Shown here: piece after piece, positions 3,421 through 60,832 of the stretch | Layout of the letters: every line of letters starts with the position of its first letter | Position numbering within the stretch: the stretch's first letter is position 1 | NCBI GenBank assembly: GCA_951406725.2 | Contig: OX597830.1 | Coordinates: 10,478,001-10,542,000 of the forward strand | From: Octopus vulgaris | Taxonomy: Eukaryota | Reading direction: 5' to 3' | DNA: 64,000 nucleotides | Position numbers and translations under genes: made by a program | The notes under the pieces: generated by a model | Told to the model about the DNA's origin: nothing | The model's database searches: none | The model's input: only the letters and a program-made list of their open reading frames with translations

Positions 3421-3967
3421 CACACACACACTGCAATGTTTGTACTACAATCAAGGTACAAAATTGAGTTGAAATTTCAATTGAACAAAGGGAATTTTAC
3501 AAATGAATTCTGAAGATTTTGTATTCTGCGACTGTGTTTTCGATTAATAAAGGAAGGGAATGTAGAATACTTTCCTGTACTAATGGAAATAGGAAGGAAT
3601 GGTTAGATGAGCTTTCGGCAAGATTTTCAACCATTTTGTTCACATGATTTTATCTGTTAGAAAGTCTCATTACATTAGCAAATGTTACTTTATTACGTTT
3701 TATCTACGGTATTATTCTATATATTGTTAAATTATATTATAGTAGTATATTGTCTTTTGTTTGATGAACGGAATAAATATAATCTTTCGTGTATATATTT
3801 TTAAAACGAAAGGGAATAAAAGATAATAACGTATCTATTCACTGTTAATACGTTTCGGCAGAATTGAACGTAAATATGTTGTTCACTGTTGAATTGCGTC
3901 TTCGGAGAACAACTTCTCCTTTCGGATGGTATATATTCATTGGAGAGAATCTTGAGATACATAGATG

Positions 3968-4350
3968 TAGGCGTGGCTCTGCAGCAAGAAGTTTACATCC
4001 CTATCATATGGTTCCTGGTTCAGTTCCGCTTCGTGGCACCTTGGGCAAATGTCTTCTGCTATAGCCGGCCAAAACCTTGTGGGTGAAGTTGGTAGACGAA
4101 GACGAAAAGAAGTGTGTGATTGGGGGGCGTGTATGGGTCTTTGTGTTTGTCATCTCACTACCGCTTAACAACAGCTGTTGGTGCGTTTATATGCCCGTAA
4201 CTTAGCAGTTCGGCAAAAGAGACCGATAGAATTAGTATGTAGCTTAAAAACAAAACAAATAAATACTGAGGTCAATTCATTCGACTAAAAAATGGTTCAA
4301 GGCAATGCTCCAGCATGACCACAGTCTAATGACTGAAGCAAGTAAAAGAA
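3968..4350 (+). mobile_element. SINE family A, diverged copy
   Basis: ggttcagttccgc B-box-like, ccttgggcaaatgtcttctgctatagc, and 3' gctccagcatgaccacagtctaatgactgaagcaagtaaaag. Confidence 0.8.
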
Positions 4351-4875
4351 GATCAACCGGGTTGTTTCGCTTCAATAAAAGCTGACCTCAGTTTAACAAA
4401 TCTAAACAAGAATCGTGCCTCTCCTTCTTTATAAAATTCAACAGGCAAGTCATTTGTGATGCACGCTGATGTCTCCCAAACCCAACAGTAAATCTTCATG
4501 GCCATAGAAAATATCGAAAACAAATGGCGTACGTATTCATTCTTATTACGCTCCGGCAGAGTTTAACGTGAATACGTGAATCATTGTTCAGCCTCTGCCT
4601 CGTGATGCACTGAAGATTGAATTTAAAATATTGAACGTCGCACTTTCATTTGGCACGTTTGATGAAGAATTTTAGAAGAATACTTAAAGAACACAACTAT
4701 TTGCTTTGTTTTATTTACCGAACACGGGGCTGTGTGGTGAAGAAGCTCGGCTATGCAACTACGCAGTTTTGAGTTCCGTCCCACTGTGCGGCTTGAGAGA
4801 TATTGGTAGACAGACACTGAATGGTAGCCCGACGTGTGTGTGTGTGTATGTGTGTGCGTATATGTATAATATAAA

Positions 4876-12109: not shown

Positions 12110-12815
12110 CAGCATCTCACTATCAAAGTATAGTACTAGGCCTACAAAGAATACGTCCTAGGGATGATTTCGCCTACTAAAATCCTGCATGGCTGCAGTC
12201 AAATGATTGAAACGTGTAAAAAGAATTTAAAAAATAGCTAATGAACCTCATTAGTTAACAGCTGATTTTGTTACAAGATGCAGTTCTCTCATAGCTAATT
12301 AGTTGTGTATCACCTGCAGCTTATGTTTGAACGCGTTCGATGCGCGACAATTAAACCACATAGGTTTCCGTTCTAATGTTAATCGCCCCAAACTCCCACC
12401 ACCGCTTGTACACAGATGGTTGTCCGTGTCCAACAGTAGACTATGATGTGATACAAAGAGCACAGCAATAATACGAGAAAAGAACTTGGACGTCACTCGG
12501 TCCTCCTTTATTCCATTCGTACAAATTTAGTTGCTGTTTTGTCTCTGACTTGTATTTCTTTTTCGATTGCCTGACGATGTGTTTGCTCCATGTTGGTTGG
12601 CCCAAAGCTCCGTCTACTGCTTGCTTCTATAGTGCGACATCATGTGTTACCGAATATTAAAATATATGTAACAACTGGAATAAAGGAGAACGAACTTATG
12701 ACGATGTACTTTTCTTCTTTACACACACACATGCACTCACACACACACACACACACATATGCACTCACACACACACACACACACACATGCACTCACACAC
12801 ACGCTATATATATTC

Positions 12816-13192: not shown

Positions 13193-13200
13193 GATGTAGA

Positions 13201-13422
13201 TATGAGAGAGTGCTGAAAAGTTCCTGGTTTAAGAGAATCACAAAAGGCCGAGTTTGATGTCCAACCTGCTGCGTTTTCTTACAGGACAAAGAAAAACCGA
13301 AGGACTGCTGCAATAAGTCTGTGAATCTGAGAGGGGAATATGTTCAATAAAATCATAATTAACTCACCCCACCCTGTATTTTCTTTGAGCAAATGCAAGG
13401 AACTTTTCAGCATCTCCTCGTA
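13201..13422 (+). mobile_element. Mariner-derived MITE
   Basis: TIRs tatgagagagtgctgaaaagttcct and aggaacttttcagcatctcctcgta with TA ends. Internal KSVNLRGEYVQ* resembles the mariner transposase C-terminus. Confidence 0.8.
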
Positions 13423-13829
13423 CATGTATGTATACACATATACATGAACGTATGTGTTTGTGTGTGTGTACTGTCAAGCCGCAGTTATCCGAACGTTAGT
13501 TAACTGAATTTCCAAACCATAACCTCTTAACATAATCCCTTGAATATTACAGGTACAATCCTTTCATTTTTGTTTACAATTATCCAAAGGAAATTCGAAT
13601 TACTGAATGACGCGTAAAAATAAAATATAGTTTACATCAAAGATATGGCTGTGCGCCAGAACGTATAAAAGAATGGTGAGACGTTATTGTTTGGGTTCTC
13701 TCTATTCTGTGTGCCCCTCGTGAATTATTATTAGTTTGGTAGACATCAGTAAGCTTTAGTATATAATTTCTTTGTTGATTCCTGTTCACAAGAGCCAGAT
13801 CTCTCGTTATATTCGTTAATCTAAGATAG

Positions 13830-13872
13830 CTTTGACTGAGGAGTAAGATCGAAACAACGCAATGTCTGAAAG
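13830..13872 (+). ncRNA. Minimal type-I hammerhead ribozyme (copy 1 of tandem pair, degraded)
   Basis: CUUUGA-CUGAGGA-guaagauc-GAAAC-aacgcaau-GUC-UGAAAG. Intact core, weak stems II and III. Confidence 0.55.
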
Positions 13873-14140
13873 TCCTTTTACTTTAATGAATCGCGTGTGA
13901 TGAACACACTTCGTCTAAAAGATGTTTTTCCAGTGACGAAAACCATCCGTGATCGTCATATCCATGCTTGAATTTTCCAGAACGTATTCAGAATGAAAAA
14001 ATACGAAATCGCTTGGATTTTTAGTATCCTGCATGCACTACATGAATTGTTATCAGTTTGGCAGGCATCGTGCATCAATAAATAATTCAATTGCTGATTG
14101 CTATAAACAGGAGCTTGTGCCCTTGATAAATTCATTAGTC

Positions 14141-14196
14141 GGCTTTGACTGAAGAGACACAGTATGGCCGAAACACCATGGTGTCTCAAAATAGCC
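14141..14196 (+). ncRNA. Minimal type-I hammerhead ribozyme (copy 2 of tandem pair)
   Basis: UUUGA-CUGAAGA-gacacaguauggcc-GAAAC-ACCAUGGU-GUC-UCAAA. Perfect stem I, intact core, palindromic stem III (ACACCAUGGUGU), GUC site at 14183-14185; stem II has mismatches. Confidence 0.78.
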
Positions 14197-15359
14197 TCAC
14201 ACAAATCCCATGTGTTGTAAATACGCATATTTGAAAAGGGGGATCTTCAACAACGATGAGATGTTCACGTTCAAATCTATCAAAACGTAGTGAATATGAA
14301 TAGATATGTTATAATCTTAATTACCATATATAATCCACAAAAATGAGAAAAATGATTACAAAAGCTTTACCCGTAATAAAACACTAAAAGCCTCCAAACT
14401 GATACATAACACACAAAACAAATCGGGAAGTATAGTAATACGTTGCGTTGTAGATTTTTCTTTAATTCGTGTTAATGTTTTTTATTGGGTGCAACAGCAT
14501 TTCAATGGTCCTTTGCAAGCAACACGCCATTATTGTTAGCATCACACCATTTTGATGATGAGATTGCAAAGATCTAGAATCTTTAATAGATTAATGGATT
14601 TAGGAATGTTTTTGCCCTTAAATAGATTTAGGAACGCTACTGATTGTATATATGAATGTATTTTATTTTTATTTGATTTAGTTGTCTGACTATAGCATGT
14701 TGCAGCATCGTATTTGATGGTTTGGGTGATCGTATTAAAGCTACTAATCTAAAGATTTGCATTCCTGTAGTTGTTGTTGCTACGCTGTATTCATAAAGAC
14801 AAAGACGCAACCCAGCTCGACACAAGTTTAACCGATGAACATAAATACAAACACGCGCACAAACACGCATATATACAGGTATGTATGAGAGAGAGAGGGA
14901 GAATGTGAGACCATTCAGTAAAGTATATGGCTACGTTCACCTAAGCGTAATTATTCAATAGTTGCACAATACACTCATCTTGTGCACTTATCATTGTGTA
15001 TCTTATCCTTCTCCCGTTTTGTGACAAATGGAAAGCTATTTAAATAGGATGGATGCATCTTTGGTAACATGCTGAATAACACAGAAACTGACCAAGGGAA
15101 ATTACCTCCTTTCATTTGGGGAAGGAGGGTTCAAAACGTTATCGCTAAAGATTGCGAATAAACGGGAAAAAAAGAGGGTCAGATAGTTGTATTTATACCT
15201 GTTCATATACAGTAAGGTTTTTTTCAGAATTTTCTTTTATCCTGTAATTCATAAATGATTGCGCTAGCGTTTCTTGAATTTACTGTCAGTCATATCTATA
15301 CACTGCTTGCTATCGTTTAAGTGTTCAACCACCGATAGATGAATAACAACATTGCTGTT

Positions 15360-15720
15360 TCAAGTCCGTTCAGTGGACAATCATTGATATTTCGATACAA
15401 ACAGCTTTCTTCTGTTTTGCTTGTGGGTCAGTGCAATATAATGTTTTAAGTTTGAACTGCAACTGTAATTCAACTTGATGTGCCTACCAAATATCATCTT
15501 ATATTTGTGGTACGGAAGAAAATGCTTATCTACTAAGTTAAGAAAAATTTTAGTTACATTTGATTGCACATTGACAGAGAAAGAGGTTGGATTAGATTAG
15601 ATAACAACATTTTCCCGAGACCCTTTGAATGATTAACGATAGTTAGAACAAGTTGTCTCTAGAACCACTCGTCTTTAGCTCCTCAAAATAAGAAGCTGCT
15701 ACGTCAAAAGTACCGTTATA
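15360..15720 (-). pseudogene. Decayed Penelope-like retroelement ORF (RT-to-GIY-YIG linker, Naiad-like)
   Basis: Minus-strand peptides FDVAASYFEELKTSG, VQSNVTKIFLNLVDKHFLPYHKYKMIF..IKLNYSCSSNLKHYI and CPLNG match the recalled PLE pattern TNVGKxFLxLxDKHFP..KIFN..VKxSYSCxxN..CPLxG. Stops and frameshifts present. Confidence 0.75.
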
Positions 15721-16185
15721 CATGGACAGTTAACATTACCTAATGTTTGAAGCAAAGTTCTGAGACAGTGATGGACGGCACCATGATTGTGTATACGTGT
15801 TGTAAGAGAGAGAAAGGAAGACAATTTTGAACGTAAATAAAGTCATGCAAACAGTAATTGAAATCATTCGACATCGACATGTGTATAGGATTAATTAGAA
15901 GAAGAGCTTCACGATGACACTTAAAATTCATCGAAAGGCAGCACGACCAGATTTATAAAACTGACCGTTGGCGAAATTTCGAAGCCATTATCACACTTCC
16001 TTCTCTCTCTCTCTCCACAAGTTGATGGTGTTTTTGAAGTAGTGTATCTATTCCAGTAAGCAAGTATATTGTATTTCATTTAATTTGTCTTTCGACGAGC
16101 AGGTCATGAAGCTGTGAAACAGGGTTTTCCCTGTTTAACGAAAAACCTAATATACTGCTGTACACACACACACATACACACGTAA

Positions 16186-17480: not shown

Positions 17481-18074
17481 AGACGGGCTTCTTTCGGTTT
17501 CCGTCTACCAAATCCACTCGTAAGATTTTGGTTGGCCCGTGGCCATCGTAAAAGACACTTACCCTAAGTGCCACGCAGTGAGACCGAACCCGCAACCATT
17601 TGGTTGAGAAACACGCTTTTTACCACGCAGCAACGGCTTTTACCTAGGGTAAGTGTCTTCTACTATGGCCATGGGCCAACTAAAACCTTACGAGTAGGAT
17701 TTAGTAGACGGAAACTTAAAGAAGGCCTTAATATGTGTGTGTACGTATGTATATGTGTGTGTGTGTAGGAAAATCGAATATTAAAAACAAAACAGCAAAG
17801 TCAAAAGACGTACACCTGGGGGGGGGGTAGTATTTGTACCCCAGTACTGCTTGATAACCAGGTTTTAAAGAAATAAGTACTAAGGTCGCTTTGTTCGCCT
17901 AAGCCCTTCAAGGTGTGATGCACCAGCATGGCCGCAGTCTAGAGACAGAAACAAATAAGAGATAAGATATATAAAAGGAGAACAAAAGAAAAAGTTCTCG
18001 AAAGAACGGAATATGTATTCAAAAGCATTTAAACCGGTCTGTGAAAATTGCTCTTCAGTTTCTCGTTCTCGATA

Positions 18075-18300
18075 CTTCGTTCGTCGTTGTCGACGATGAT
18101 CAAGGACATCACATGGAGAACACTGATCACGGTGCGTCCGGTTGTGGCCAATTCGTCCGATTCGTCCTCGGAAGCCTCGGCCACATGTCAGGCACTGGTG
18201 GTCTGCTGGGACTGAAGACGACGAGTTGGATCTGGACTTGCCCAATTCACGTTTTCTTTTTGCCCTTGCAATCCTCCTCTGTCGGGGCAGCTTTGCCAAG
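18075..18300 (-). mobile_element. 3' end of RTE-type LINE with C-terminal C2H2-like motif
   Basis: RIARAKRKRE...HQCLTCGRGFRGRIGRIGHNRTH followed by a short 3' UTR. Confidence 0.7.
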
Positions 18301-18724
18301 CAGGGCGGTCTTGTACTTGCGTTTCCCAGGTGTTGGGTTCTTCATGAGGTGTGTATGTGTATAAATAATGTGTGTGTACATGTGAGTGTACGTGCAGTGC
18401 GGTTGAATCACACAGTGGAACACCTTGGGCAAATGTCATTTTCTGTAACTTTCAGTCGTCCCGTACCTTGTGAGGCATTTCAGGGGAAATGGTACCCGGT
18501 ATTCATAAGACACATTCTTGGTTTGCACGCGCGCACACACACACACGATCTCTGATTTTCCTGCGAATTACATGAAGGGTACACATGCCAGTGGAATACT
18601 CTGCCACTTTACACTTAAAGAACAAGAAGTTCAGTTCATACATTCATAAAATGACTGAATCCTCTTTGTCGAGCGACCGAGGCCCACCTCACACGCTCAC
18701 TTGCCGACACACGCATTAATTAAC

Positions 18725-28956: not shown

Positions 28957-30020
28957 TTATCACCTCCGCCTTAGCGAGGGCGGAGGTATTGTTTTCAGTC
29001 GCGTTTGTTTGTTTGTTTGTCTGTGGACATGATATCTCAAGAACCACTGGATGGATTCGGATGAAACTTTCAGGGATGTTTGGCCTCGTGACTGGTACGA
29101 ACTGATTAGATTTTGGGATCGATTCGGTACCGAACAAGGATTCTGGATTATTCGTTATATTTACTTTACATGAAGTATTACAATCTTACGTTCACTTTCA
29201 AGTCTTTCTCTGATTACCTCTCTCGAAAGCACGCTCATGGTTTCCACGTAAGTTACGGTGGTGTTACTGTTTCCAAAGTTTTATTTTCGTTTCTCTATTA
29301 TTAATCTTACTCACGTTCTATCTTAGTAGAAACTGATGGATAAAGAAATCAAATGATACAAACAAACAGCAGCAAAACCGTTCAGAAATTAAATAACACT
29401 AATATATTCAGTAACAGTAATAAATTTAATTTAACCTCGACAATCTTTAATTTTACTGATTTTGAATATATTGCTCCTGTTTAAAACCTTTTACCTACTT
29501 GACAATTGTATTTCTAGCTCTGCCTTGAAGGAAGCTTTACTTCTTGGACTCACATTTTTGTGTACATCGATGTTGTTGAACCTTCCTTAACAGCACCGTA
29601 TGCAGGTCCTTTCCGTTTTCTTTCATGCACGGATGAATTTTTCTCTTTAGACCTTAATGGTTGTAAAGATACTATATCAGTGGATAGACTAAAAAATGCC
29701 TTCATAGAGAAAATTGTCCCTGTTCCCACTGCAGACGACACACACACACACACAGCATTAAAAACACGGCCCACACCTCTACCTTCACATTCCATGACTA
29801 CCACTGGGATCGATCAGGTACCGGACAAGGATTCTGGATTATTTTTCCAATTTTTTTACTTAATTTTTGAGAGTGGTTGGGTTCATATTTAGTATTCTCG
29901 TTTGTGAGAGTAGTCGAGTTTATTTCAGATATTCTCATTTTAAAAATCATTTCCGTTTAATCGTTGAGAGGACGTTGGTGTTACCTTGGCGGAAGTTTGT
30001 GCTCTCTGAGTGCTCTTGTT
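28957..30020 (+). mobile_element. Non-autonomous Helentron-associated element (HINE/DINE-1-like)
   Basis: 5' acctccgcc..ggcggaggt palindrome, (GTTT)n, atgaaacttt core; 3' ggcggaagt subterminal IR plus short stem-loop; T-rich flanks; internal duplication at ~29075 and ~29806. Confidence 0.8.
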
Positions 30021-33304: not shown

Positions 33305-33875
33305 CTTTTCTACTCAGGGCACAAGCCCGAAATTTTTTAGGGAGTGGGGCCAGTCGATTAGATTGACTCCAATATGCAACAGGTACTTAATTTATCAACC
33401 CCGAAAGGATGAACGGCAAAGTCGACCTCGGCGGAATTTGAACTCAGAACATAGCAGCAGGCAAAATACCTATTTCTTTACTACCCACAAGGGGCTACAC
33501 ACAGAGGAGACAAACAAAGGCAGGCAAACGGATTAAGTCGATTACATCGACCCCAGTGCGTAACTGGTACTTATTTAATCGACCCCGAAAGGATGAAAGA
33601 CAAAGTCGACCTTGGCGGAATTTGAACTCAGAACGTGGCGGCAGGCGAAATACCCGTTTCTTTACTACCCACAAGGGGCTACACACACAGAGGACAAACA
33701 AGGACAAAGGGATTAAGTCGATTATATCGACCCCAGTGCGTAACTAGTACTTATTTAATCAACCCCGAAAGGATGAAAGGCAAAGTCGACCTCGGCGGAA
33801 TTTGAACTCAGAACGTAACGGCAGACGAAATACGGCTACGCATTTCGCCCGGCGTGCTAACGATTCTGCCAGCTC
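33305..33875 (-). mobile_element. SINE family B trimer (one head, three core units)
   Basis: Three ~180-bp units joined at cgaaatacc/ctatttctttactaccc. Confidence 0.88.
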
Positions 33876-36319: not shown

Positions 36320-37118
36320 CTACTATAGACACAAGGCCTGACATTTTGGGGGACGGAACTAATCGATTATATCGACCACAGTACTCAACTGGTACTTATT
36401 TCAGTGACCCCGAAAAGATGAATGGCAAAGTCGACCTCGGCAGATTTCGAACTCAGAAAGAAAAGACGGACGAAATGCAGCTAAACATTTTGCCCGGCGT
36501 GTTAACGCCTCGGCCAACCTGCGACCTTAGCAACGACAATAATTATGGTTTTTACTATAGGCACACGGCCTGAAGTTTGTTTGGGAAAAGGATAGTCGAT
36601 TACGTCGACCCCAGTACTTAACTGGTACTTAATTTAGCAATCCCCTAAGTATATAAAGGCAAAGTCGAGCAAGGCGGAATTTGAACTTAGAACGAAAAGA
36701 CGAACGAAATAACTATTTCTTTACTACCCACAAGGGGCTAAACACAGAGGGGAAATACAAGGACAGACAAACGGATTAAAACGATTACATCGACCCCAGT
36801 GCGTAACTGGTACTTATTTTATCGACCCCGAAAGGATGAAAAACGAAGTCGACCTCGATGATATTTGAACTCAGAACATAAAGACGGACGAAATGCCAAT
36901 TTCAAGGGGCTAAACACAGAGGGGAAAAACAAGGACAGACAAACGGATTAAGTCGATTACATCGACCCCAGTGCGTAACAGGTACTTATTTAATCGACCC
37001 CGAAAGGATGAAAGGCAAAGTCGACATCGGCAGAATTTGAACTCGGAACGTAGCGGCAGACAAAATACCGCTAGGCATGTTGTCCGGTGTGTTAACGATT
37101 CTGTCAGCTTACTGCCTT
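36320..37118 (-). mobile_element. SINE family B array (four core units)
   Basis: Repeated core and tail blocks. Confidence 0.85.
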
Positions 37119-45706: not shown

Positions 45707-46013
45707 CGGCCATTGGAAAAAATGCTATGAAAATGACCGTTAATCAAAGGGAAATAATTGTGTGATTGACCGTTATTAAGACAAAAGAGCTATTAGAATG
45801 ACCGCTAAGTGAGGGGAGGGAGTAAAAATAAGGGGGTAAAAAAGTTCATAGTGTTCGCGAAAGCGCGCATGTCCATACCTACTCGTATATATATTGGCGA
45901 AAAAGCCCGCCATTTTCATAGATATGTAAAGATGAACATTCGTACATGCTGCGGCGAATTCTACGGTTGGTTGTCGGGTATGTGATGTTGTTTTTTTCTT
46001 ATGTCTTGCGTTC

Positions 46014-46077
46014 GTTGCACTGAAGAGCATAGAATGCATATTCTGCATTGATTGCGAAATCACAGGTGATACGTAAC
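46014..46077 (+). ncRNA. Type-I hammerhead ribozyme candidate
   Basis: GUUGCA-CUGAAGA-GCA.AAUGCAuauucUGCAUU.UGC-GAAA-UCACagGUG-AUA-CGUAAC; cleavage triplet AUA at 46069-46071. Confidence 0.65.
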
Positions 46078-46409
46078 TAAATTCTGTTTTTAAACGACTT
46101 GCTTTGAAGTTTTGCATTCGGTACAATTTGTTTATTTTTGTAGTTTTGACAGCAAAAGTCCCTCCTAGCGTGCGGTACCTATGAATAACAGTACCCTCTG
46201 TATAATATAAATATATATATAAAGAAAGAGAGAAACTGAAAATATTCAGATGAACATTCATGTATAAGCCTTTAGATATATATATTAACCACATTTTATC
46301 CCGCAGACTTCCGAGTGTAAGTACAAATCATTTGAGCACCACAACTTGTTTTCTATACTGGACATCTCTGGATCTCACTCGCTGATTCTCTCTCTCGTTC
46401 TCTCTTATA

Positions 46410-60282: not shown

Positions 60283-60832
60283 ATTGATTTTTGTTGTTGT
60301 CACTTAAAGCATGCAGAATCCATGCTCCATACTTCTGAACCTTTCCCATCTAGTGAAGATGCTTCTCTATAGCAGTGTGGGAGCATTCCATTTTCTCTGC
60401 CAGTTCCCTTGTCGTTTGACGAGAATTTTCGTGCAAAAGTTGGTTTAATCGCTCTTCATCGAACTCAACTGAACGGCCAGAACAAGGTGTGTCTTTGAGG
60501 TCAAATTTTCCATTTTTGAACTTGGGATACCAATCACGAGCGGTTCTTTCAGCTATGGCACCCTCTCCATACACATCACAAATGCCGCGAGCAGCTTTAG
60601 CGGCCTTAGAACCTTGATTAAAAACAAAAAGGTGTAATCGAAAACGCTTGATTTTCTTAACTTGATATTCCATCTGAAAATAAACAAAAATTAACTAGAA
60701 AAAAAACAAACAAAATATATTCCAAAATGATTCAAAAATAGAATTCTAGAAAAAATAGATTCCAAAATTTAAAAACGCAATAAATTCAAAAACTTTAAAA
60801 AAAAACGGCGGGAACTTAGTTGAAAACACATA
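60283..60832 (-). mobile_element. 5' portion of a mariner transposon
   Basis: TIR-like tatgtgttttcaactaagttcccgccgtttt at ~60802-60832, AT-rich leader, transposase N-terminus; truncated by a SINE-B tail. Confidence 0.85.
60350..60673 (-). pseudogene. Mariner (Mos1/Hsmar-type) transposase N-terminal HTH domains, truncated
   Basis: AAKAARGICDVYGEGAIAERTARDWY.KFKNG.FDLKD.P.SGRS..., TTRELAEK; after the stop, MGKVQKYGAWILHAL is a degenerate WVPHEL. Confidence 0.92.

Follow-up and report, generated by a model that had tools for sequence, protein, structure and literature searches.

We found that a tandem array on the forward strand of the octopus window (the whole 64-kb stretch of DNA analysed) is probably an old, decayed member of a dispersed, non-coding family with units of about 320 nt, which we read as a non-autonomous, retrozyme-type derivative of a PLE terminal repeat. 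This array (array A, 13656-14325) had been put forward in the initial annotation as an old retrozyme or pLTR dimer. The AT-rich unit of 319 nt, the type I hammerheads and a tandem register that recurs elsewhere all agree with the proposed class of element. The proposed size fits in so far as two units end in hammerheads, but a third unit head follows them, the family has a second array in the window, and array A is not a simple dimer. As tandem repeats carrying type I hammerheads are widespread in animals, a single locus has little weight. In an octopus host, it would bring a retrozyme-type family to a lineage in which the literature searched describes none, and the lead is the family rather than the locus, as the ends of its arrays bear on whether internal priming by PLEs mobilizes retrozymes.

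Tandem units of array A

The case for tandem, diverged direct repeats, as first annotated, hung on a significant alignment between the two units, and such an alignment was obtained. Local alignment of 13656-13871 with 13977-14190 gave 147 identical columns of 206 (71%). Its score of 124.5 compares with a mean of 24.5 and a maximum of 48.5 among shuffled sequences, so that none of 1,000 dinucleotide shuffles reached it; with the hammerheads removed, the alignment still scored 99, again with 0 of 1,000 shuffles reaching this value. Across the array, unit-to-unit likeness was 67-71% (a divergence of 29-33%). The repeats had been placed at about 13710-13872 and 14030-14196; they do lie there, but they start about 55 nt further 5'. 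Each repeat ends, as had been claimed, in a type I hammerhead on the same strand, with CTGAnGA cores starting at 13836 and 14149, 313 nt apart. The positions of the GUC triplets bear out the cuts predicted after 13866 and 14185: C17 falls on these two bases, giving a predicted cut spacing of 319 nt.

A loose type I descriptor matched three sites in the window, namely the two array A copies and one at 46020, compared with two matches in total over 30 shuffled windows. The site at 46020 (46013-46078, forward strand, core at 46020) is a looser candidate with a long self-paired helix II region, an AUA triplet, a helix III of 4-5 bp and a mismatched first helix I pair; by profile, it is unrelated to the array family.

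The alignable part of unit 1 (13656..13871, forward strand) comprises a conserved block, a body and hammerhead 1. A possible 5' extension of this unit to about 13560 was non-significant (97 and 510 of 1,000 shuffles). The predicted cut-to-cut monomer (13867..14185, forward strand) is 319 nt long with 38.6% GC, and the part of unit 2 that can be aligned with unit 1 occupies 13977..14190 on the same strand. Downstream of the second predicted cut, also on the forward strand, we observed the head of a third unit (14186..14325), whose end comes shortly after its best-conserved block (about 14246-14310). This head matched the head of the next unit in array B, described below, at 60 of 80 positions and the full-length array B unit at 38 of 54 positions, with 0 of 1,000 shuffles scoring as well in either comparison; its match to unit 2 was weak (30 of 1,000 shuffles scored as well). 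Array A therefore contains about 2.1 to 2.4 units, and the end of the third head near 14325 is likely to be the 3' end of the array A insertion.

Tandem Repeats Finder did not report array A, and no target-site duplication of at least 8 nt was found between the two flank regions searched; the ends of the array are old and fuzzy. Two readings of the sequence in and after the array were rejected: the sequence after the third head was considered as shared internal PLE sequence, for which 963 of 1,000 shuffles scored as well, and the conserved block was considered as a second, minimal hammerhead, for which there is no CUGAnGA upstream. RNAalifold predicted a weak 6-bp helix in the conserved block (-1.8 kcal/mol). 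Just upstream of array A, at 13200-13420, lies a MITE-like element of about 220 nt with 20-nt inverted ends (13206-13225 versus 13416-13398, 95%). Possibly another small DNA element occupies 12500-12691, where 21-nt inverted arms that are 86% complementary stand 150 nt apart.

Relatives of the units and the search for PLE coding sequence

A second array of the same family (array B) lies 9 kb from array A on the minus strand, running from 4666 to 3812. Alignment identified a full-length unit in it (Ba, 4345..4666, minus strand), which is 68% identical to both unit 2 (180/265 positions) and unit 1 (171/253 positions), with 0 of 300 shuffles doing as well in each case. Ba ends in a ruined hammerhead that has lost C3 and its entire helix II and whose near-palindromic helix III is centred on CCGG. 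The following unit is represented by its head (Bb, 3812..3956, minus strand), and the unit position at which this fades is close to that of the 14186-14325 head of array A. A profile of the units found no further copy of the family in the 64-kb window. Between Ba and Bb lies a SINE (3957..4349, minus strand), which has 17 other matches in the window; it is flanked by helix III on one side and the 3' strand of helix I on the other, and its position exactly at the array B cut site could reflect either chance or a preferred target. Pieces of SINE also form tandem arrays at 33352-33833 and 36731-37049, with a period of about 172-184 bp and 88-90% matches. As a whole, the window is rich in SINEs and microsatellites and in this respect resembles octopus DNA.

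Beyond the window, we compared 4 of 24 listed sequencing runs: X1, X7 and X10, which are of DNA type, and X13, which is presumed to be RNA. Contigs less than 90% alike were present in all three DNA-type runs (53 of 67 contigs compared in X1, 52 of 63 in X7 and 39 of 48 in X10). Those listed match over stretches of about 50-67 nt, beyond which they are unlike; some of the short AT-rich matches may be due to chance, and read depth does not give copy number. X1 is possibly close to the source of the window and is therefore not counted as independent support. A relative found in X1 and X7 has the conserved block joined to the unit body through 40 body-like letters (joint 14305 to 13721); in X1, another contig carries the body plus the next head at tandem spacing (joint 14069 to 14248). 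Units 1, 2 and Ba and the X1/X7 relative thus agree in the body sequence that follows the conserved block. Over 14169-14452, a contig from X10 (organism D) differs at 12 of 284 positions, so the 3' junction of array A is common to a differently labelled organism. The contig pieces listed included neither a long near-identical paralogue nor the orthologous hammerhead region, 13480-14170. With array B, relatives in three runs and no Pfam or library match, this is, as judged from sequence, a dispersed, diverged, non-coding family with multiple loci, as a non-LTR retrozyme would be.

Pattern scans returned five viral and four metagenome matches, none of which was a member of the family: only the hammerhead itself matches in the viral sequences, and the metagenome matches are without helix I. 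The viral contigs (L001, L002, L004 at 1001-1048, L003 and L005) carry apparently intact type I hammerheads that are unrelated to the octopus family.

A rival reading derives array A from an autonomous PLE that was truncated at its 5' side, leaving the partial-tandem pLTR end, with no separate non-autonomous family involved; we consider this rather unlikely. PLEs do insert as partial tandems whose pLTR carries a hammerhead (PMC8557442, PMC4209133), and the geometry of PAc, a PLE discussed below, fits. Loop II of hammerhead 2 also contains an ATG, at 14164, 22 nt before the predicted cut. This ATG and the conserved block share a reading frame, and across five unit heads no other frame has so few stops (7 compared with about 15 expected, P = 0.02 before correction for six frames). 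However, a reverse frame of the heads is nearly as open (8 stops), and variation among the units has no third-codon bias (27/36/38). Near array A we found no trace of the RT and GIY-YIG reading frame that accompanies the pLTR of an autonomous PLE: none of 26 stop-free frames of at least 40 residues in 13241-15952 matched a PLE domain in Pfam, a scan in which short, decayed frames limit sensitivity and which the surroundings of array B lie outside. We also rejected the unit-head frame as a PLE N terminus, as the translated heads had no match in Pfam and a profile of four of them retrieved only two repetitive, unrelated proteins and no PLE. Finally, random 5' truncation would not yield the single junction between block and body that four units from different loci share. 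Elsewhere in the window, two further frames lack a Pfam match; we take the one at 17880-18341 (minus strand) to resemble the C terminus of an RTE LINE and the one at 29518-29892 (forward strand) to resemble the C terminus of a Gypsy integrase.

Age of the units and state of the ribozymes

The p-distance between units 1 and 2 is 0.33, and that between either unit and Ba is 0.37-0.38. Half the JC distance is 0.22 between units 1 and 2 and 0.26 against Ba. A PLE expansion in Octopus vulgaris has been placed at JC 0.2 and dated to 56 million years (PMC13282606), an agreement that depends on the octopus host. On these distances, array A would have decayed by about 0.2 substitutions per site since its insertion, which would make it a relic. 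One alternative is that units 1 and 2 never shared a tandem or circular template from which both were copied, but represent separate sub-families or arose through a local duplication at a later time. The two units are hardly closer to one another than to Ba, and, with the core kept, helix III has CATG at its centre in copy 2 but a CCGG-like sequence in Ba, as if the copies had diverged while active. However, one old burst would also give near-equal distances, and the exact head-to-tail register, which recurs in array B and in other contigs, argues against separate origins; we regard this alternative as improbable. An old, decayed array remains our preferred reading.

Both array A hammerheads have an intact core, with the CUGAnGA, GAAA and NUH elements and the G10.1-C11.1 and A15.1-U16.1 pairs all present. 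Hammerhead 1 (type I, 13829..13873, forward strand, predicted cut after 13866) has six of seven pairs in helix I, with a G.G mismatch beside the core, a single G-C pair in helix II, which carries a 6-nt deletion relative to copy 2, and a non-palindromic helix III of 3 bp. Hammerhead 2 (type I, 14142..14190, forward strand, predicted cut after 14185) has a helix I of 5 bp and a helix II in which two of four pairs are broken, and a competing fold of -18 kcal/mol runs across its predicted cut. Its helix III (14173-14184) is the perfect 12-nt palindrome that had been described; as a monomer it forms 4 bp and a CAUG loop.

Modelling assigned the catalytic helices of both copies a predicted pair probability of at most 0.07. 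Energy models frequently miss real hammerhead cores. Rfam gave no match at the gathering score in the whole window; below threshold, RAGATH-1-hammerhead, a model of hammerheads with a one-pair helix II, matched copy 2 only (17.5 bits, E = 4.8). Given that hammerheads with a one-pair helix II exist, copy 1 is not certainly dead. We infer, rather than demonstrate, that the array A ribozymes cleave weakly or not at all at present, as models miss true hammerheads and one-pair helix II variants occur.

The palindrome had also been taken as a mark of dimer dependence, which finds no support in these copies. Copy 2 closes on itself (4 bp and a 4-nt loop), and the helix III strands of the two copies are predicted to pair poorly (-4.8 kcal/mol for the mixed duplex versus -19.8 kcal/mol for a copy 2 homoduplex), so that dimer dependence is unsupported for this pair. 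In dimer-dependent hammerheads of animals, helix III is 1-2 bp long (Cervera & de la Pena 2014, PMC4209133); neither copy has such a helix with a palindromic loop, and the neighbours are predicted to be poorly complementary to each other. The predicted release of a circle of about 320 nt from array A fares no better: both helices II are damaged, and the 319-nt circle is predicted to fold like its shuffles (-66.1 kcal/mol, 55% paired, z = -0.53), with 46 of 150 shuffles folding equally well. By this model, the present-day monomer would not be the highly self-paired molecule expected of a circular RNA, which lowers the case for an active retrozyme and leaves that for the relic of a retrozyme unaffected. 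The presumed RNA run, X13, yielded two short pieces that lie outside the units and give no evidence on expression either way.

Copies 1 and 2 are identical at 16 of 16 core positions, for which the neutral chance is 0.2-0.4%. At a unit likeness of 67-71%, such identity requires ascertainment, separate active lineages or later selection. We attribute it to ascertainment or to divergence of still-active copies, and treat ongoing selection as a minor rival, because the pair was chosen for its intact cores and the third ribozyme, that of Ba, has lost its core. That array A is still under selection and produces a linear or circular RNA of about 319 nt is very improbable: it would account for the shared core and for the X10 contig, in which all 12 differences fall in the 230 bases that follow 14169-14222 (a chance of about 1 in 18), but it is opposed by the helix II deletion and G.G mismatch of copy 1, the two helix II mismatches and competing fold of copy 2, the weak mixed helix III, a predicted circle no more structured than shuffles and the finding that in Xenopus 8 of 9 predicted dimers failed to cleave (bioRxiv 10.64898/2026.07.22.740005). 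The reading of array A as a relic rests on the damage to helix II, the low predicted pair probabilities, the z score of the predicted circle and the third ribozyme, which is both ruined and hit by a SINE.

Possible mode of copying and comparison with known elements

In both arrays, similarity is lost some 130-145 nt beyond the cut, shortly after the best-conserved block (n = 2, with fuzzy borders), and identities in 30-nt windows at the shared array ends are near background. One route to such ends starts with an active family, whose hammerheads would have processed read-through transcripts of arrays to RNAs one unit long, perhaps followed by their ligation to circles. Internal priming by the reverse transcriptase/endonuclease of a PLE, about 100-140 nt 3' of the cut, and synthesis beyond a single unit length would then have produced arrays whose ends mark the priming site and not the cut. 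In PAc, a PLE of Anolis, the ATG lies at stem II and is followed by the cut after 26 nt; reverse transcription begins 111-118 nt inside the ORF, and there is a tail of 30-40 nt (PMC11167929). The parallel with the array ends and the loop II ATG of the octopus family is suggestive only. Cleavage is unnecessary for insertion of PAc in vitro (PMC11167929), so a circular intermediate is not required. Internal priming by PLEs as the means of retrozyme mobilization is still treated as a hypothesis in the available text of the retrozyme and PLE papers cited here. A broader proposal, which we hold only tentatively and regard as more doubtful than its alternatives taken together, is that the arrays of the octopus family all end at the conserved block about 100-140 nt past the cut, with the unit keeping a PLE start codon in helix II, and so would record PLE-internal-primed retrozyme copying, with priming of the kind demonstrated in vitro for PAc, more than once round a unit-length template; the interchangeable helix III palindromes would then mark self-pairing sub-families.

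The layout of array A, with units of 319 nt, 38.6% GC and a type I core in two consecutive units, is that of non-LTR retrozymes, whose units span 150-450 bp with less than 50% GC (Cervera & de la Pena 2020, PMC7229834); units of 350-390 bp are reported from mussels (PMC7229834). An origin of non-LTR retrozymes from PLE pLTRs has been argued in Xenopus (Li, Clavereau & Pollet 2026, bioRxiv 10.64898/2026.07.22.740005). Like the animal non-LTR retrozymes described in these sources, the octopus family consists of head-to-tail, non-coding, AT-rich units with one type I hammerhead each, in short dispersed arrays. Unlike them, its units are 29-33% diverged, its ribozymes are damaged, no target-site duplication was found and its predicted circle is weakly self-paired. 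Helix III of octopus copy 2 has 4 bp and a palindromic loop, compared with the 1-2 bp usual in animal retrozymes. A cephalopod host also lies outside those treated for animal retrozymes in the available text of PMC7229834 and bioRxiv 10.64898/2026.07.22.740005.

With PLE pLTRs (PMC4209133; PAc, PMC11167929), the family shares a type I hammerhead, a palindromic helix III, an ATG in the helix II region and an apparent 3' end about 100-140 nt past the cut. It differs from them, as far as those accounts describe pLTRs, in having no detected RT/GIY-YIG ORF, in its fixed unit length and in not having the minimal, helix III-less form. The satellite-2 repeats of newt and axolotl (PMC7229834), with a tandem unit of about 330 nt, likewise carry one type I hammerhead per unit. 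These have a helix III of 1-2 bp and were shown to cleave as dimers and to circularize, whereas the octopus array is known from sequence.

Among cephalopods, 235 Rfam hammerhead loci were counted in the giant squid genome (PMC6962438). The words ribozyme and hammerhead are absent from the main text of the O. vulgaris repeat paper (PMC13282606), and no description of a cephalopod retrozyme family was found in the literature searched, which lay largely outside subscription papers and outside Repbase.

A further mobile element was observed far from both arrays. At 60350-60694 on the minus strand, the window contains a fragment of a mariner transposase whose relatives carry PF17906. These relatives are 85% identical in a bee, 83% in a mite and 80-82% in two Octopus species, which fits an octopus host but does not single it out; the pattern of sequence identity suggests horizontal spread.
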